From the NCBI GenBank assembly GCA_018675685.1, contig JABGXP010000014.1, forward strand, positions 81,288 to 145,287: a DNA stretch of 64,000 bases, given 5' to 3'. Below the pieces are notes generated by a model. The model worked only from the letters and a program-made list of their open reading frames with translations, was not told where the DNA came from and made no database searches. Position numbers and translations under genes: made by a program. Position 1 is the first letter of the stretch, and the number at the start of each line of letters is the position of its first letter. Shown here piece after piece: positions 51,647 through 60,507 of this stretch. The DNA comes from a bacterium. Lineage in GTDB: Bacteria > Patescibacteriota > Minisyncoccia > Moranbacterales > DUUL01.

Positions 51647-52606
51647 TCAAGTTGTGCTTTTTCTTCCTAGCATTTCAAGGAGAGAGGGGAGTGCAAAGTG
51701 AACGACAATTCCAATTCCAATAGCTGAAAGTGGCACCCAGTAGAGCGCGTGACAATTTTCAAGGAGATACCAAGTTGCAACGAGAGCCGTTACTCCTGCA
51801 GTATCAAACTTCCAACCATAATCGCTGAGTTCTACATGTTTCCAGGTATTAGCAATAAGAGCTATTGCCAAAACGATAAGCGCTAGTACCCACGGCAACT
51901 TTTTTGTATTTTCGCAAGTAGTTGATGTCCCCTTAACATCTCCAGCATTTTCTGATCCTGCTCCTTCCTCGGAAATTATTGGTGTGTTTTCGCCGAGAAC
52001 TTCAGCCTCTTCTTCTGGTAAGTTCTCTGTTAGACCAAGCACGCGTCCTTGGTCAGTAAGAATATCTTCCTCGGTTTCATCTTCTGTTGCTACGCGTGAT
52101 TCTATTTCAAATTCAATATCAAATTTTGCTTCTAAGTTTTGATATTCATTACCAGCATCTTCATCGAATTTTATTTTAATGCGATATTCTTTGCCTTTTG
52201 TAGCGCTCAGACGGTCCATGTATAACTCTTCTTCATCTGCCTTTTTCAAGTCATAGCGGTCCCCTGGTCCGCCAATCCGATAACTCCCATTCTCAACCCT
52301 GATAACATATAGTTTCAATTCTTCTGCTAATTTCTTGTCACCCTTAAGGTCAATAGTAAAAAATAAATTAATATCATCTGTTTCGCTGTCATTTTCCACT
52401 CTAATAGTTTTCTTTTCTTGCCAACCAGGCAGGATGTTAGTGAAATCGAAAATAGCACTTTCATTTAAATTTGTTCCCACTGGATATTCAACATCGATTT
52501 TGTCATCTGCCCAAGCAATGTTTGTGAAAAAAACTCCACTAAAAAGCAAGCTTATTGTAAGTAAGAAGAATTTTTTCAGTCCAAATTTTATACCATCTTT
52601 TTTCAT
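51647..52606 (-). CDS. TasA/camelysin-like secreted domain with C-terminal multi-TM membrane anchor
   Basis: Conventional signal peptide ending AWA/DD. The core has FDFTNILPGWQEKKTIRVEN and GNEYQNLEAKFDIEFEIE, paralleling GNEYQGDQMTFNIELYAEQ in the 350-aa protein. An acidic linker follows, then hydrophobic helices (LPWVLALIVLAIALIANTW; VTALVATWYLL; YWVPLSAIGIGIVVHFALPSLL). The start overlaps the upstream stop (ATGA). Confidence 0.55.
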   Translation of the reverse strand: MKKDGIKFGLKKFFLLTISLLFSGVFFTNIAWADDKIDVEYPVGTNLNESAIFDFTNILPGWQEKKTIRVENDSETDDINLFFTIDLKGDKKLAEELKLYVIRVENGSYRIGGPGDRYDLKKADEEELYMDRLSATKGKEYRIKIKFDEDAGNEYQNLEAKFDIEFEIESRVATEDETEEDILTDQGRVLGLTENLPEEEAEVLGENTPIISEEGAGSENAGDVKGTSTTCENTKKLPWVLALIVLAIALIANTWKHVELSDYGWKFDTAGVTALVATWYLLENCHALYWVPLSAIGIGIVVHFALPSLLEMLGRKSTT

Positions 52607-54948
52607 GCCAATATGTTATTGATAATTAACATTACTATTTCTCCCAGATCATTCTCTTCCTCTTTTTTTTCTTCTTCCTTTAACTCTTCTTTTTCTTCTG
52701 ACTCTTCTTCTTTAATCGCTTCTAGTTCTACTTGTTCCTCTTTGGGTTCCTCAGATGTTTCGTTTTCTGCTTCCTCTGCTTTCTCGTCTTTTAATTCAGG
52801 GGTTTCATTGTTAGCTGATTCTTCTTCTACACTTTCCAATTTCTCTTCTTCTGGGGCTACCTCCTCTGCAATTTCTGGTATCGAGTCTTCTTCTTTGGAG
52901 TTTTCATTATTTAAATCAGAATCCTTGTCGTCAGTTTGGTTTTCTTCACTCTCAATAGAAGACTCTTCGCCCGAATCTTCTTCAGGTAGTTCAACTTGCT
53001 CAGTATCGGTTTGCTTTATGTTTTCTTCTTGGGCCTGATCAGTTTCTCCTTTAGAAGTATCCTCCCCTTTAATGGCATCGAGGAAAACTTCATCGCCATC
53101 TTCCTTTTTTTCATCTTCGTCTTCTTCTTGCGATTCCAAAGCAATTTCTGCTAGGATTTCGCGATAAACATCTTTGGGCATTTCATCATCATTTTCATCA
53201 TCTAAAAGACCCAAGTATTCCAAGAAAACTCCCTTGCAAAATGGATGTTCTTCCTCTCTGTCGAAATCTCTTTTGTCGAAACATTCTTCCAGAACTATTG
53301 CTTGATAATAATCTTTTTCATCGCTAGAGAGTTTGTTTTCTTTGCCTAAGCGAGGATTTGGGTCAACAAAAGGACCAACACCATCTGGGATTCGTTGAAA
53401 CGCTTTATTTTCAAAGAAATCGCTTGGCTTTTGATAATCATAGTGATCATTTTCAATTTCAACACTGCCATAACGAGCAATCAGATATAATTCACCGTTG
53501 TTGTTATTATCAAAGAATTCAGCTGGATTAAATTGTCCGTCTGCATACACAACTAGATCATCGCCAGCTGGAACAATGGTCTCACCACTATCTGAAGGGT
53601 TGTCATCATTGTCGCCGTTGGAAGTCGAAATAATAATTTCATCTCCGTCTTTATTGGCAATGATCCAACCAGCCACATCCCAGTCCTTGTCATCATTATT
53701 CCAAAGTTCAATCACTTCACCATTTGGCATTGGCGCTACGTCACTTCCAGATGGATTTGCCACAAACTCATTTAAAACTATTGGCAAGAGGTTTTGTCCA
53801 CCAGGCGTGCCATAGTTATTGATTTCATCTTCCCAAAAGTCAGTATCATTAGCAGCTGGGTGATTTGTCGTGAACCAATTTTTAGCATCCGTGCCATCTC
53901 CTGGGAGAGGCATTCTTTGCATTGAACGATAATCCGAACCATTTTCTCCTGCTGGCCAAGCTGAATCTTTCCAGGCGACGTCAACTGTTGTACCAGCTTT
54001 GTTTGCAAGTAAAAGTCCCTCGCCGTCATTGTGGAGACTCACATTTGATTTATGGGTGATTCCTTTATCAGAGTCTAGATTGCTGGAGAGGCCAATAGCT
54101 GTTTCATTCCATTTTTTTCTCAAGATCAAGAAATATCCATTAGCTTTGATGCTATATCCATGTGGAATTTCTAGGTGTGCCATTGCCCCTGCGCCATGGC
54201 CAAGACCATGAACATTCCAATTTGAAAGGTCAATCTCTTTGTCTGTCATGTTGCGAAGTTCAATCCATTCGTCAGAACTTCCTTCTTCTGATCCCATCCA
54301 CATAATCTCGTTGATAACAACAGCTTGGCTAGCTGACCACTGGTCGGAAGTAACACGGTTACTCGTAGTTTCAATATCAGAAAAGCCATCAGCTCCATGG
54401 GTCGAACCTGTTTGCCAAGCTTCAAATTTAAAATCAAAATCACAAACTTTATCAGCCAGGGAAGGATTGCCATCAGTTAATTTAACGGTAAAGTTCCAAG
54501 TTTCTTTTGAAATATTTTGTGTACTCGAAAAAAGATAGTCAGCTAATTTTTGATAGGTATTTGTTTGATCGTCTTTGATTTCCAATTTTTCACAAAGATC
54601 TAAGTCGCCAGAAAGATTTGTAGTTGAAACTTTGTAATTAAAATCCAGTATCCCGAGTTTTGAAAGCGAAACAGATTTAGAAGTTTCTGTGGAGGGTGAA
54701 ACTTTGGGAGAGAAACTGTCGTCGGAAGGAATGGAAAAGTCTAGAGTGGAAGCGCCCAGAGTGTTATTTGCGCCCTCTTCTTTGTCTGAAAAACTAGCAT
54801 TAGTGCCCCCAGGAAAATTCAGTGAAAAAGAAAAAACTGATATCAAAAGACAAATTCCCACTTTTTTGAGCGAGCTTAGGATTCTTCTTGTGATAACTGA
54901 TTTATATCTCCTTTTCTTCTTTGACATCGTCTTTTTTAGTATTATCAT
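52603..54948 (-). CDS. SipW-type-signal TasA-like domain fused to two lamin-tail domains and a roughly 230-aa acidic tail
   Basis: N-terminus ...LLISVFSFSLNFPGGTNASFSDKEEGANNTLGASTLDFS, a SipW-cognate-type signal. The TasA-like core ends CDFDFKFEAWQ. Two LTD-like units are present (VVINEIMWMGSEEGSSDEWIELRNMTDKEIDLSNW...; IVLNEFVANPSG...GEVIELWNNDDKDWDVAGW...). The C-terminus is extremely D/E-rich. The start is 54948 or 54927. Confidence 0.65.
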   Translation of the reverse strand: MIILKKTMSKKKRRYKSVITRRILSSLKKVGICLLISVFSFSLNFPGGTNASFSDKEEGANNTLGASTLDFSIPSDDSFSPKVSPSTETSKSVSLSKLGILDFNYKVSTTNLSGDLDLCEKLEIKDDQTNTYQKLADYLFSSTQNISKETWNFTVKLTDGNPSLADKVCDFDFKFEAWQTGSTHGADGFSDIETTSNRVTSDQWSASQAVVINEIMWMGSEEGSSDEWIELRNMTDKEIDLSNWNVHGLGHGAGAMAHLEIPHGYSIKANGYFLILRKKWNETAIGLSSNLDSDKGITHKSNVSLHNDGEGLLLANKAGTTVDVAWKDSAWPAGENGSDYRSMQRMPLPGDGTDAKNWFTTNHPAANDTDFWEDEINNYGTPGGQNLLPIVLNEFVANPSGSDVAPMPNGEVIELWNNDDKDWDVAGWIIANKDGDEIIISTSNGDNDDNPSDSGETIVPAGDDLVVYADGQFNPAEFFDNNNNGELYLIARYGSVEIENDHYDYQKPSDFFENKAFQRIPDGVGPFVDPNPRLGKENKLSSDEKDYYQAIVLEECFDKRDFDREEEHPFCKGVFLEYLGLLDDENDDEMPKDVYREILAEIALESQEEDEDEKKEDGDEVFLDAIKGEDTSKGETDQAQEENIKQTDTEQVELPEEDSGEESSIESEENQTDDKDSDLNNENSKEEDSIPEIAEEVAPEEEKLESVEEESANNETPELKDEKAEEAENETSEEPKEEQVELEAIKEEESEEKEELKEEEKKEEENDLGEIVMLIINNILA

Positions 54949-57225: not shown

Positions 57226-57741
57226 ATGAAAAATAGAAGAGAAGAAAGAAGATTGTTGAGAGAAGAAGGTCTCCCAATTGAAAGAATGAGAATCATCGAC
57301 ACAGCAGAGACGTTGGATTTGCAAATCAAAGAATTTCTGGGTTGTCATGTATCCGTGAGTGGTTGTGGTTCTTCGAAAGAGCAGACACTGGATCTCTCAT
57401 TGGTGAGAGAGTTTGTCGGAGCAATTCCGGTTGCCAACGTTTTGTTCGAAGCACCTCGCTTTGCATGGACCAATGAGGAAGATGATATTCCTGTCAGGGC
57501 GATTGTTCTGGAAGTTTTGGCTGGTAGCAAAGGAGATGACCTTCTGAATGGCATTTTCGATGATGTTGGCATGATCTTTGAGGATATTCGTTTTTTGAAC
57601 TTTCTCTCAGTTATCCAAGCGACGTTGTCGCCAGTGTTTCCAGTTTGTGAGCTGGAGGTTTTGCTGAAAATGATTAATGATTTCAAAAAAAGTCCGGTGA
57701 TCCAAAAATCAGACATGGGGGATGAAAATATCAATGAATAG
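57226..57741 (+). CDS. hypothetical protein (171 aa), orphan locus gene 1
   Basis: AAGGAGA lies 7 nt upstream of the ATG and the gene has its own terminator. No recognisable motif. Confidence 0.5.
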   Translation: MKNRREERRLLREEGLPIERMRIIDTAETLDLQIKEFLGCHVSVSGCGSSKEQTLDLSLVREFVGAIPVANVLFEAPRFAWTNEEDDIPVRAIVLEVLAGSKGDDLLNGIFDDVGMIFEDIRFLNFLSVIQATLSPVFPVCELEVLLKMINDFKKSPVIQKSDMGDENINE

Positions 57742-57781
57742 CTCCTTTTGTCGAATAGTTCGTTCTATTGAATGTTTGCGA

Positions 57782-57818
57782 GGTGTCTAGTGGAAAATTC
57801 CGCTGGACACCTTTTTTT
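57782..57818 (+). terminator. rho-independent terminator after orphan gene 1
   Basis: ggtgtctag (57782-57790) / ctggacacc (57803-57811) with one mismatch, followed by ttttttt (57812-57818). Confidence 0.65.
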
Positions 57819-57840
57819 GAATAATTTTTGTCGATTTTCA

Positions 57841-57869
57841 TTGACAAAAGTAACAAAATCATGTATGGT
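57841..57869 (+). promoter_or_regulatory. putative promoter of orphan genes 2-4
   Basis: TTGACA (57841-57846), 17-nt spacer, TATGGT (57864-57869). Confidence 0.45.
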
Positions 57870-57971
57870 TATTGGAATGATCCAAATCTCTTTTGAGTCA
57901 AGGTCATTTGCTAGTTCTTCGTCAATTTGGAATTTTAGAAAAAAACTTTTTAATTTTTTTGGAGGTAAGTC

Positions 57972-58367
57972 TTGAAAGAAGAGCATGGAAGGATAAATGT
58001 TTTAATCGTGGATAGCGAGGAAGATGATGCTATAATTCTCGATATCAGAAAGTTGATCATCAATTTACATCAAAAACAAGGGAGCAAAAAAGAGCTAGCT
58101 ATTAGCTTAATTGATAGCCAAGTGAATCTTTTTGCACATCATTTAGAGTTTGATTTTCAAATTGTTATTCTGTTAAACAACAATGAAAAAAGCGATTTGA
58201 TTTTTCAATATCTAAATGGGTTTTTTTCTGGCAAGGCAAAGTTTATTGTCATTGGCCCTGAAATTGAAACTGCGGCTAAGCACGCGAAGTTTGAAGGTGC
58301 TTGGGTTGTTTCAAACACCTTTAATGAAGTGATCCCACAGTTCGAAACATTGATGGGAGAGAAGTAG
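57972..58367 (+). CDS. degenerate response-regulator-receiver-like protein (131 aa), orphan locus gene 2
   Basis: TTG start with GGAGG 6 nt upstream. The layout INVLIVDSEEDD ... FQIVILLNNNE ... KFIVIGPE ... GAWVVSNTF parallels the REC strands b1, b3, b4 and b5. The acidic pair is altered and the phospho-acceptor Asp position reads N. Confidence 0.45.
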   Translation: MKEEHGRINVLIVDSEEDDAIILDIRKLIINLHQKQGSKKELAISLIDSQVNLFAHHLEFDFQIVILLNNNEKSDLIFQYLNGFFSGKAKFIVIGPEIETAAKHAKFEGAWVVSNTFNEVIPQFETLMGEK

Positions 58368-58376
58368 TTTAAACGG

Positions 58377-58389
58377 TCAATCAGCAAAG
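58377..58389 (+). repeat. leader motif copy 1: TCAATCAGCAAAG (preceded by TTTAAAC)
   Basis: Identical 13-mer to 58630-58642. It lies 37 nt upstream of the ATG at 58427 and is followed by the hairpin agtaaac-tgcaaag-gtttact. Confidence 0.6.
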
Positions 58390-58426
58390 TAAACTGCAAA
58401 GGTTTACTGAAGATGGGGAGGATGCT

Positions 58427-58603
58427 ATGGACAGATATCTTGACCCAGAAATACGACAAAGGCGCAGAAACAAACTAGTAAGTGGCAAGTGCACTGTTTG
58501 TTCAAATGACGCTGCAATTCCTTGGAAGCAACATCAATATTGTTACGACTGCTGGGTAATTGCAGAGGTTTATTTCATGAAAGAACTGCGGAATGAAAAA
58601 TAA
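58427..58603 (+). CDS. small zinc-ribbon protein (58 aa, below the ORF-track cutoff), orphan locus gene 3
   Basis: My own translation: MDRYLDPEIRQRRRNKLVSGKCTVCSNDAAIPWKQHQYCYDCWVIAEVYFMKELRNEK. GGAGG lies 6 nt upstream of the ATG. It has two CxxC pairs and a TAA stop at 58601-58603. Confidence 0.45.
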   Translation: MDRYLDPEIRQRRRNKLVSGKCTVCSNDAAIPWKQHQYCYDCWVIAEVYFMKELRNEK

Positions 58604-58629
58604 GGAGAGCGAAAGATTAATTTAACCTA

Positions 58630-58642
58630 TCAATCAGCAAAG
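58630..58642 (+). repeat. leader motif copy 2: TCAATCAGCAAAG (preceded by TTTAAC)
   Basis: Identical 13-mer, 11 nt upstream of the ATG at 58654. It runs into the GGTGG Shine-Dalgarno-like sequence. Confidence 0.6.
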
Positions 58643-58653
58643 GTGGTAAGAAG

Positions 58654-59619
58654 ATGGAGAAAAGAAAAAAAGGAGATAAAAAACCAGAGAATGTAAGAAT
58701 CATTTTTGTTTCTGCTGTCTGCGGAAAAGAACCAGAGCTCATGACCAGTTTTCTTGAAGAGTTTGATTCTTTCGCGAAGAAGCAGGACAAAAAAACTTTT
58801 GTCTTGATTTTCTGCGGAAAAGCAAGCGACCCAAGCAAGCTTTTGCGAAAGGCTGACATTCTGGTAACTGATCCCGTGATCACTTGGGGTGGAAGAAAGA
58901 CATTCCTTCCTCAGCTAGGTTCTGCCAACGATGAGCGCGAGAATGGAAAACGCAGAATCATTATCGTTCTTCCAAGAAAGAAGGATGAAAGAAATAAATT
59001 CTTTGCTGACCCCCGGTGTTTTGCAAAGACATTGATGCCAAATGTGGAGCATCCTCGGAAAGTTGAAAAAATCTCGCATATTCCTTTGAATGGCAAGACT
59101 CTGGAAAAAATCGAAGATGAAGTCATTTTCGAACTACCAGAACATTGTTCAGCCCCGAGAGTGATGATCGCACTTTCTAATTCTTTTGAAATGATTGAAG
59201 CGAAAAAACTGAAGGAGACAATTGAGGCACAATTTGCCCTTGAGGTGATGGTGGTTCCTTGGAAAAGCTTCCGAGCTTCAATGGCCGCCGAAGCGGATGT
59301 TTTGATTACTAGCACTGTTCAACAGCTCGATAGACTCCCAACACCTGCAAGAGTTCCCACTAATAGGCACAATGGTAGAAACAACAAGTTTGTCGAATCA
59401 AAAGTTCACACCTATCAAAACTTGGCGCATGTTGACATGTCCAAGAAGGCTAATCCAGCCCTGCAGGTTGTTCTTTTGGGAAGGGAAGTGACAGCGTTCA
59501 TTGTTCGTTATGCGGACATCCTATCCGGCTTCTTAGAGTTTCCGCCAACAAAGGCTTCTTTGTCAGCAGCTTTACAAAGAGCAGCTTTGAAAAGCGAAAA
59601 ATCAGTTCTTATCAATTAG
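58654..59619 (+). CDS. hypothetical protein (321 aa), two alpha/beta-looking halves, orphan locus gene 4
   Basis: Intact ORF. It has repeated hydrophobic-strand patterns (RIIFVSA, FVLIFCG, ADILVTD; then RVMIALS, EVMVVPW, ADVLITS). No family recognised. Confidence 0.5.
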   Translation: MEKRKKGDKKPENVRIIFVSAVCGKEPELMTSFLEEFDSFAKKQDKKTFVLIFCGKASDPSKLLRKADILVTDPVITWGGRKTFLPQLGSANDERENGKRRIIIVLPRKKDERNKFFADPRCFAKTLMPNVEHPRKVEKISHIPLNGKTLEKIEDEVIFELPEHCSAPRVMIALSNSFEMIEAKKLKETIEAQFALEVMVVPWKSFRASMAAEADVLITSTVQQLDRLPTPARVPTNRHNGRNNKFVESKVHTYQNLAHVDMSKKANPALQVVLLGREVTAFIVRYADILSGFLEFPPTKASLSAALQRAALKSEKSVLIN

Positions 59620-59686: not shown

Positions 59687-59726
59687 GAGGCATGCAGGAA
59701 ATTTTTCCTTCGCATGCCTCTTTTTG
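59687..59726 (+). terminator. rho-independent terminator after the orphan operon
   Basis: gaggcatgc (59687-59695) / gcatgcctc (59712-59720), followed by tttttg. Confidence 0.75.
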
Positions 59727-59898
59727 TCAATTAAAGTTGACGTTTTAGCTAGAATATGCTAAAAAGAAATATTATACTTTTCAAAAAGAGATTACTTTTA
59801 TTTTCAATGAATATTTCGATTTGCTAGTCGCCGGGAAGCAAATTGATTTTGTAAGAAGATTTGTTAGAATGGTTTTGCATTACAAGTAATATGACTTT

Positions 59899-60507
59899 AT
59901 GGAGCTTAAAGAGTATTTAAAAGTTTTGAAGAAATACAAAACAACCTTTGTTGTCATCTGGGTTGGAGCGATTGCTTTTGGATTGATTGCAGCGTCTCTT
60001 GTTCCACAGAGATACAAAACGACTTTTTCAATTGATATCACAAGAGATACGCAGGAAGAAGGAACTCAGGAATATGACTTTGATCAATTCTATCGTTTAG
60101 AAGCAGACGATCGATTCGGCAGGACAATTGTAGAATGGTTTAGTGATGGTGCAATTGTAAACAACATTCACGCTGTCGCAAGAAGCGTGGAAGAGAATTT
60201 TGAAAATGAAGAACTCGAAACGAAATTTAAAGCAAAAAAGCTCGCAAATAGCTATTTGAGGGTTAGCTTCTTGGTTTCAGAGAAAAAAGAAGTAAAACCA
60301 CTTTTTCTGGGAGTGAAAAAAGTTCTAAATGAGAAAACCAAGGAGTTTAATGGCGGTTTCAATAAACAAAGCAGCTTTAAGCTCATTTTTAATGGACCAA
60401 CTATTGCAAATGCTACAATTCCACTTACCCCACTACTTATCAGTTTGATTGGCAGTGGTTTTTTCTTGGCAGCATTCGGGATTATGTTTAGAAAGTATCT
60501 AGAATAA
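59899..60507 (+). CDS. Wzz-like polysaccharide chain-length determinant / co-polymerase family protein (short)
   Basis: N-terminus LKEYLKVLKKYKTTFVVIWVGAIAFGLIAASLVPQRY is typical of the Wzz N-terminal domain. A second TM sits at the C-terminus. Glycosyltransferase genes follow. Confidence 0.5.
   Translation: MELKEYLKVLKKYKTTFVVIWVGAIAFGLIAASLVPQRYKTTFSIDITRDTQEEGTQEYDFDQFYRLEADDRFGRTIVEWFSDGAIVNNIHAVARSVEENFENEELETKFKAKKLANSYLRVSFLVSEKKEVKPLFLGVKKVLNEKTKEFNGGFNKQSSFKLIFNGPTIANATIPLTPLLISLIGSGFFLAAFGIMFRKYLE

Follow-up and report, generated by a model that had tools for sequence, protein, structure and literature searches.

A rapidly diverging two-gene orphan operon, with a predicted receiver-fold protein, beside the Wzz-like polysaccharide cluster of a Moraniibacteriota lineage

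Bacteria of the candidate phyla radiation (CPR) carry many genes without assignable function, and the regulation of the cell surface in these tiny episymbionts is largely unknown. The genes considered here lie on contig JABGXP010000014.1 (assembly GCA_018675685.1), within a stretch of 64,000 nucleotides (positions 81,288 to 145,287 of the contig; hereafter the window). The initial annotation, made from the letters of this stretch, described a terminator-bounded orphan locus of four genes, here called P1 to P4: an unknown protein of 171 residues, a degenerate receiver, a mini zinc ribbon and an unknown protein of 321 residues. All four open reading frames (ORFs) are indeed present with their ribosome-binding sites as described. 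Together with the signals around them and the gene that follows, they are laid out thus:

57226-57741, + strand: P1, 171 aa, ATG start, ORF with ribosome-binding site; own transcription unit
57780..57820, + strand: intrinsic terminator of P1, a 15-bp stem (57780-57813) followed by a T-run
57830..57869, + strand: promoter of the P2(-P3)-P4 operon, with -35 TTGACA, 17 nt and -10 TATGGT at 57841-57869; the palindrome GTCGATTTTCATTGAC (57830-57845) overlaps the -35 element
57972-58367, + strand: P2, 131 aa, TTG start, GGAGG 5 nt upstream; small alpha/beta protein, putative single-domain pseudo-receiver
58368..58653, + strand: spacer of 286 nt between P2 and P4, holding P3; apparent lineage-specific insertion
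58427-58603, + strand: P3, 58 aa, coding status doubtful; C22xxC25 and C39xxC42 (CxxC-x13-CxxC), GGAGG ribosome-binding site
58654-59619, + strand: P4, 321 aa; two-domain receiver-fold protein according to its model
59687..59725, + strand: intrinsic terminator of P4, stem at 59687-59720 followed by a T-run; ends the P2-P4 operon
59726..59770, + strand: probable promoter region, serving the Wzz-like/GT4 operon on its 3' side; includes the palindrome GTCAATTAAAGTTGAC (59726-59741), which overlaps a TTGAC -35-like hexamer
59899..60507, + strand: Wzz-like chain-length-determinant gene, 3' neighbour of P4 (Pfam Wzz, E 4.9e-5, just under the cut-off)

Beyond the Wzz-like gene, the 3' side holds two GT4 glycosyltransferase genes, a DUF4012 gene, a spermine-synthase-like gene and a tRNA synthetase gene. 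Codon usage was scored with a test trained on the 24 long genes of the window, each ORF being compared with both of its shifted frames, and P1, P2 and P4 are gene-like at 0.25-0.40 nat per codon. The exact P4 protein is encoded on contigs of many samples, for instance from Saanich Inlet at 200 m, and three of the loci fetched for comparison (L001-L003) are 99.97% identical to the window. The top matches of the neighbouring glycosyltransferase are metagenome-assembled genomes of Candidatus Moraniibacteriota (Patescibacteria/CPR). The GC content at the locus is unremarkable, and searches of window and locus gave no Rfam match and no tRNA.

The promoter and the two terminators claimed at the outset are present by promoter scan and by folding. 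The first terminator folds at -25.4 kcal/mol (z -6.8), a stability that none of 200 shuffles equals, and the second at -21.4 kcal/mol (z -7.0); the latter is overlooked by a simple scan because its stem is bulged. Four lineages, the window and three others (L084, L004 and L005), have the same promoter core CATTGACAAA-N17-TATxxT in front of P2 (alignment A6), and in the three others a hairpin with a T-run stands at the same place 3' of P4, with different stem sequences. At the level of sequence signals the P2-P4 unit therefore has its own conserved promoter and terminator, as expected of the independent transcription that had been proposed. The block TTGTCAATTTTTGTTGACGTT...TAGAATATGCTAGAAAG in the region 59726..59770 is likewise conserved in four lineages (alignment A5), and this region is probably the promoter of the Wzz-like/GT4 operon.

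What recurs in relatives is not a four-gene locus. In L004 and L005, the two closest genome representatives, and in L084, a P2 homologue is followed by a P4 homologue and then directly by the Wzz-like gene and the two GT4 genes; only P2 and P4 co-occur, and P1 and P3 lie outside this core. The real unit is thus a two-gene operon, P2-P4. Its two genes share 4 nt (ATGA) in L005; a gap of 9 nt separates them in L084 and one of 54 nt in L004. The P2 homologue of L084 is 35% identical to P2 in pairwise alignment (E 3e-17). Since the upstream neighbours differ between the three loci, the P2-P4-Wzz adjacency is what is kept, and the positional link with surface-polysaccharide genes pointed out in the initial annotation holds in all of them. 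A fifth member of the P4 family, P0005 (L086 222-1169), is encoded directly upstream of a ManC-type mannose-1-phosphate guanylyltransferase (L086 1378-2541), which appears to be a second, independent link to sugar-polymer synthesis.

The genes on either side of the P4 terminator differ widely in their rates of change, as the identities between the window and its relatives indicate:

P2: L084 36%, L004 17%, L005 27%
P4: L084 29%, L004 23%, L005 23%
Wzz-like: L084 67%, L004 66%, L005 69%, L088 63%
GT4a: L084 85%, L004 78%, L005 79%, L088 81%
GT4b: L084 77%, L004 78%, L005 76%, L088 75%

L088 has no values for P2 and P4, its contig being cut just upstream of Wzz. Thus P2 and P4 are 17-36% identical, against 63-85% for the Wzz-like/GT4 flanks, while the promoter and terminator are still kept. 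Comparable divergence is seen only in surface proteins of the fibre operon (versus L084, the lamin-tail-domain protein is at 25% and SipW at 42%). This operon lies upstream on the opposite strand, where the annotated neighbours are a camelysin/TasA-like gene (Peptidase_M73), a SipW-like peptidase, the lamin-tail-domain protein and an unknown gene, with ATP synthase genes ahead of these. It adjoins the pair in the window and in L084 only, not in L004 or L005, and the suggested link to the fibres falls away as a conserved feature. The cluster itself has a different beginning in most Moraniibacteriota (L012, L014, L019, L042, L049, L067, L069 and others), where the Wzz-like gene comes after genes for a WbaP-like priming transferase (~471 aa) and a GT4 of 368 aa. 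Both are missing from the loci of the P2-P4 clade and from the 64-kb window, and P2-P4 therefore seems to sit at a rearrangement breakpoint of the cluster.

All four genes are true orphans by sequence. Pfam and NCBIfam give no match for any of the four proteins, PADLOC none at E <= 10 and PHROGs none below E 0.01, in keeping with the early statement that no family could be recognised for P1 and P4. A word-index search of 5.8 billion clusters with P4, P1 and a P2+P3 concatenate returned their own cluster alone. An exhaustive HMMER scan of 1.84 billion representative proteins gave four relatives of P4:

P0004, 477 aa: 32% identity to P4, E 4e-33, encoded in L084
P0005, 315 aa: 34% identity, E 1e-13, on the short contigs L086/L087
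P0006, 329 aa: 24% identity, E 2e-11, encoded in L005
P0007, 347 aa: 25% identity, E 5e-4, encoded in L004

Hidden Markov model (HMM) searches of 110 fetched loci found P2 or P4 homologues nowhere but in L004, L005, L084/85 and L086/87; neither gene has a homologue in 78 further loci of Moraniibacteriota/Patescibacteria that share the GT4 gene or in 23 metagenome Wzz loci. No relative was found in a metagenome scan with P4 and P0005 or among viral contigs (IMG/VR), and a metagenome scan with the Wzz alignment yielded one close relative, L088. Family scans of the extra ORFs of the relatives gave nothing meaningful.

A structural view of P4 depends on its family. The single-sequence AlphaFold model was unusable, with a predicted local distance difference test (pLDDT) of 33.6; the model built from the six-row family alignment A1 reaches 66.9, its domains standing at 70-87. 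It is organised as follows:

Residues 12-132 (58687-59049, + strand): N-domain, four predicted beta-alpha units, pLDDT block means 66-81
Residues 133-158: linker, predicted to be disordered
Residues 160-320 (59131-59613, + strand): C-domain, predicted (beta-alpha)5 fold, pLDDT block means mostly 71-87
Residues 223-253 (59320-59412, + strand): basic insert in the C-domain, predicted to be disordered

Both alpha/beta modules that the initial annotation had read into the 321-aa protein are seen in this model. Its structural neighbours are overwhelmingly CheY-like receiver domains, in a whole-model match that does not distinguish which domain is aligned. In Foldseek, the top PDB match is a TadZ-like atypical receiver (E 2e-5), TadZ/CpaE-type atypical receivers (4dad, 4dn6 and 4lda) are among the best matches, and the BFVD matches are histidine kinases and response regulators. 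The fold search that had been suggested as a check thus brings up receivers, but sequence does not support membership of the receiver family. The model displays the (beta-alpha)5 three-layer arrangement of receivers; judging from topology, the receiver fold would be clearest in the C-domain, and the N-domain would be a related alpha/beta domain of three layers. Several other identities (PTS EIIB-like, SIS, flavodoxin FMN-loop, Toprim, HAD and TIR) were considered and dropped, as receivers dominate the neighbours and the motif residues are unconserved. A role for P4 as a bacterial tyrosine kinase (BY-kinase) of the CpsD/Wze type, the partner of Wzz, was also rejected: there is no Walker A motif and no match to a P-loop family, and the neighbours are receivers, not P-loop NTPases. 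The string 'SAVCGKE' after strand 1 of P4 is not conserved as GxxxxGK[ST] in the homologues. In P0004 (L084 9119-10552, 477 aa) the N-module is doubled, in the order N-N-C, and thus acts as a self-contained domain that can be duplicated.

The P4 family has just six invariant residues: S20, D68, D73, P107, F117 and L257. The model places three of them at C-terminal strand ends of the N-domain, S20 at strand 1, D73 at strand 3 and P107 at strand 4. In receivers, this face holds Mg2+ and the phosphoryl group. By eye, 'aDilvtDpvitWGG' in P4 looks similar to 'pDlvllDxxMPxxxG', the strand-3 motif of receivers, and D73 would then be the equivalent of the acceptor; because hhalign does not recover this register, we infer the equivalence from the motif. 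The rest of the receiver residue set is absent from the N-domain, where Ser20 follows strand 1, Pro107 follows strand 4 and no Lys is conserved. In the C-domain, the acceptor site after strand 3 shows no conserved residue. The strand-5 motif of this domain, 'S.FLE.P[PF]T', can be placed in register with 'GYVVKPFT' of CheY, a match that is non-significant on its own, with the Pro kept and the Lys replaced (the position reads F/Q/L/T/Y). With a receiver fold in the model and the phosphorylation residues lost, P4 would belong among the atypical or pseudo-receivers, a descriptive class and not a sequence family.

The smaller protein has a comparable pattern. The residues invariant in the P2 family are V10, L11, V13, D14, N69, F78, V93, G95, F107 and F117, of which D14 follows strand 1, N69 ends strand 3, G95 follows strand 4 and F117 follows strand 5. 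By this pattern an Asn (N69) occupies the acceptor site, there is neither an acidic pair nor a Lys, and P2 probably has a receiver-like fold. Of its earlier description as a degenerate receiver, the strand pattern, the invariant D14 and the Asn at the acceptor site stand, but no sequence method places P2 in the family. The idea that P2 and the N- and C-domains of P4 are sequence-detectable paralogues was rejected, their mutual hhalign comparisons being non-significant.

Proteins of this kind are known elsewhere. FrzS of Myxococcus xanthus is a pseudo-receiver controlling exopolysaccharide production (PMC3158785). FrzS and the N-terminal atypical receiver of TadZ/CpaE have a CheY-like fold without a phosphorylatable Asp, as P4 would according to its model, and the known systems act by protein-protein contact. 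However, the FrzS and TadZ receivers are detectable by sequence and fused to a coiled coil or a ParA/MinD ATPase, whereas P2 and P4 carry no other domain, occur in five lineages only and show no similarity to receiver profiles. DrdR of Xanthomonas campestris is an output-less tandem receiver that binds the motor ATPases of the pilus, a surface appendage (PMC13507683). In DrdR, in the Rec-Rec' stem of PleD and, by prediction, in P4, each chain holds two receiver-fold domains of which one is degenerate and the other keeps an Asp; DrdR and P4 lack an output domain, whereas PleD has a GGDEF output domain. DrdR differs in having a canonical, functional receiver that belongs to Pfam Response_reg, while the P4 N-domain has neither acidic pair nor Lys and only four clear strands in the model, and the C-domain carries a basic disordered insert of 30 residues. 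Set against the receivers of PF00072 in general, the likeness lies in the predicted (beta-alpha)5 fold of the P4 C-domain, the Pro of its strand 5 ('xP[PF]T'), the strand/helix periodicity of P2 and the Asp after its strand 1. The differences are that P2 and P4 fail the sequence model and lack the Lys, that no acceptor Asp is present save the putative one, D73 of P4, and that there is no partner kinase nearby.

We propose that P2 and P4 are a pair of pseudo-receiver adaptors that would modulate envelope polysaccharide assembly through protein contacts. As most phosphorylation residues are lost and there is no output domain, both would most likely act as phosphorylation-independent adaptors, without a kinase. 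A complex of P2 with P4 is probable, given the translational coupling of the two genes in relatives, and this complex would modulate the neighbouring machinery, namely the Wzz-like co-polymerase, the two GT4 enzymes and the DUF4012 protein. The N-domain pocket of P4, with its invariant Ser, Asp and Pro, may sense a small phosphorylated ligand or a non-canonical modification. Envelope polysaccharide assembly is pointed to by the kept Wzz/GT4 adjacency and by the position of P0005 beside ManC. Because this functional link is positional and confined to one narrow clade, we put the probability of the full mechanism at only about 40%. It is plausible that the pair is a very divergent form of pseudo-receiver proteins already known, with a role in polysaccharide control.

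A number of results weigh against this proposal. The P4 model was built on six sequences and is of medium confidence, and the assignment of P2 is drawn from its strand pattern. Pfam and NCBIfam find no receiver in P2 or P4 at E <= 10. Profile searches of the PDB with the two families find none either, and profile and single-sequence searches there returned noise alone (designed proteins and a methyltransferase, at E 0.06-1.8). Comparison of the P2, P4-N and P4-C families with canonical receivers by hhalign gives probabilities of 1-3%, and a receiver HMM scores the P2 and P4 homologues at E > 10, against 1e-23 to 1e-26 for true receivers elsewhere. As no sequence method supports receivers, the term degenerate receiver refers to fold and pattern only. 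The genetic side has its own difficulties. Upstream of P0005 (L086/L087; L087 1-359), there is no P2-like gene within 359 nt. The P2-P4 operon has its own terminator, and Wzz probably its own promoter. The tie to the polysaccharide cluster is positional and seen within one narrow clade, and so could be inherited gene order.

This last point leads to the main alternative, somewhat less likely, in which P2 and P4 do have receiver folds and stand beside Wzz/GT4 by inheritance, as weakly constrained accessory regulators or adaptors of another process, be it the TasA/SipW fibre operon, cell-cell contact with the host or general physiology. It accords with an operon set apart by a promoter of its own and a strong terminator, with the close relationship of the four syntenic lineages (GT4 75-85% identical) and with the breakpoint position, WbaP-like and GT4 genes occupying the same place in other Moraniibacteriota. 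Extreme divergence, which leaves six invariant residues in P4, also fits weak constraint, but conservation does extend to the promoter, the terminator and a few polar residues. Moreover, the P2-P4-Wzz adjacency stays while the upstream neighbours change, and the fifth family member is again beside a sugar-nucleotide gene, in a different arrangement. The polar residues could instead make the N-domain of P4 an active site, with D73 phosphorylated by a kinase or a small-molecule donor, or with S20, D68 and D73 serving a small hydrolase or phosphotransferase that acts on a sugar-phosphate or nucleotide intermediate. S20, D68, D73 and P107 are invariant in proteins otherwise 23-34% identical, and S20, D73 and P107 lie on the catalytic face (strands 1, 3 and 4) of receiver, HAD and flavodoxin-like folds. 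A conserved G-G/A-R/K loop after strand 3, the duplication of the N-module alone in P0004 and the sugar-polymer enzymes next door agree with such an activity. We nevertheless hold it to be improbable: there is no Mg2+ acidic pair and no conserved Lys or Thr of the receiver quintet, no enzyme family or solved structure is matched by sequence, and D73 was mapped to the acceptor Asp by eye, in a register that hhalign did not recover. In addition, no histidine kinase domain occurs among the locus flanks (window, L001-L003 and L084), and the 64-kb window yields no hit to the receiver HMM.

Rapid evolution and patchy distribution would also be explained by a conflict system, whether anti-phage defence, a toxin-antitoxin pair or a symbiont-host arms race, and a clade-restricted, fast-evolving couple of one small and one large gene has the look of one, as does the variable content of the loci (the P3 insertion, the module duplication of P0004, the extra small ORFs in L084 and L005). 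The position beside housekeeping envelope genes is stable, however, not that of a mobile island, GC content is unremarkable, and among the structural neighbours there is no nuclease, NTPase, TIR, SIR2 or toxin-like fold. Nothing in PADLOC, PHROGs or the viral contigs of IMG/VR speaks for the defence cassette offered as an option in the initial annotation, and we consider a conflict system very improbable. The adaptor proposal can, for its part, be carried further, to a hyper-evolving, translationally coupled pair of receiver-derived proteins that replaced the priming-transferase end of the cluster in a clade of marine and sediment Moraniibacteriota, in which the S20/D68/D73 pocket of P4 would sense a metabolite or modification and directly gate Wzz-dependent assembly, its divergence tracking host adaptation of the symbiont surface. 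This is a long shot; if true, it would be a kinase-less, output-less 'receiver-only' signalling device. If the pair controls Wzz-type assembly with neither kinase nor output domain, a minimal regulatory design would be added to the pseudo-receiver repertoire. If it does not, it is a useful case of fast protein divergence (~25% identity) beside enzymes that are ~80% identical, with promoter and terminator retained. Some CPR orphans may be receiver-fold proteins that have diverged past the reach of sequence methods, and P2 and P4 are a concrete, testable pair of candidates.

The two genes outside the conserved unit can be dealt with more briefly. P1, with its own terminator, is lineage-specific: a homologue is absent from L004 and L005, and L084 has, at the corresponding position, an ORF of 346 aa whose N-terminus gives a weak match to P1 residues 19-78, with 39% identity (pairwise E 2e-5). 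P3 scores 0.11 / 0.007 nat per codon for codon usage; each of the 192 true-gene windows of 58 codons scores higher, and 38% of spurious ORFs do at least as well. Gene callers have annotated it in public records (HN784_03710); it has no counterpart in any relative and no family match in Pfam or NCBIfam. The spacers P2->P3 and P3->P4 both open with a direct repeat of ~25 nt (58365-58389 and 58618-58642, 84% identical), and given this duplicated junction and the short or overlapping P2-P4 gap of the relatives, the ~250-nt segment bearing P3 looks like an insertion. No other copy of the segment occurs in the window or in the fetched loci, and a repeated mobile element is accordingly not supported as its source. 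P3 would thus be a lineage-specific insertion of doubtful coding status; for the 'mini zinc ribbon', the ORF, its two CxxC pairs and its ribosome-binding site are there, but codon usage resembles that of spurious ORFs and no relative has a homologue.

Other receiver-related genes were met with around the cluster. Small orphan ORFs near the pair, at L084 6212-6700 and at L005 614-1168 and 1720-2217, form a family of their own that the window lacks; with canonical receivers this family aligns over 97 columns in hhalign (E 0.0018, probability 15%), with an Asp kept at the end of strand 3. The neighbourhood of the pair appears to be enriched in degenerate receiver-like genes. In distant Moraniibacteriota, proteins of ~190 aa combine a receiver with a C-terminal zinc ribbon:

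L026 5052-5624: receiver plus zinc ribbon
L018 2620-3192: receiver plus zinc ribbon
L032 297-866: receiver plus zinc ribbon
L046 2890-3456: receiver plus zinc ribbon
L048 2826-3392: receiver plus zinc ribbon

Their receivers are clear Pfam Response_reg domains (E 4e-19 to 2e-21) to which a CxxC...CxxC module is fused, and the acceptor position appears to be Gly (DVIFTGIIMP). Each gene is flanked by those for RecJ and an ADP-forming acyl-CoA synthetase and lies 2-5 kb upstream of the Wzz/GT4 cluster discussed here. They are an architectural echo of P2+P3, with no detectable sequence similarity to P2 or P3, and hhalign of the P2 and P4 families against them is non-significant. In the fibre operon, the lamin-tail-domain protein (52603-54948, - strand) ends in an extremely acidic, Glu/Asp/Lys-rich tail of ~250 residues, and at 25% identity to its L084 counterpart it diverges as fast as P2 and P4.

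Two minor features concern the promoters. The palindrome GTCRA-N6-TTGAC occurs in the 64 kb at 57830-57845 and 59726-59741 only, and both copies overlap the -35 element of a promoter that directly follows a terminator, that of the P2-P4 operon and the probable one of the Wzz operon. The count is 3, a perfect palindrome being counted on both strands, versus 0.23 expected, and 4 of 300 shuffles reach 3. The copy at the P2 promoter is not kept in the P2 promoters of the relatives; the one at the Wzz promoter is kept in L084 and found as a variant in L005. The motif could conceivably be a shared operator of both operons. Lastly, the P2 leader (~100 nt) has a small hairpin, without an Rfam match, directly after the -10 box in all four lineages and of a different sequence in each, at 57872-57885 in the window, ~8580-8605 in L084, ~7680-7710 in L005 and ~7605-7630 in L004.

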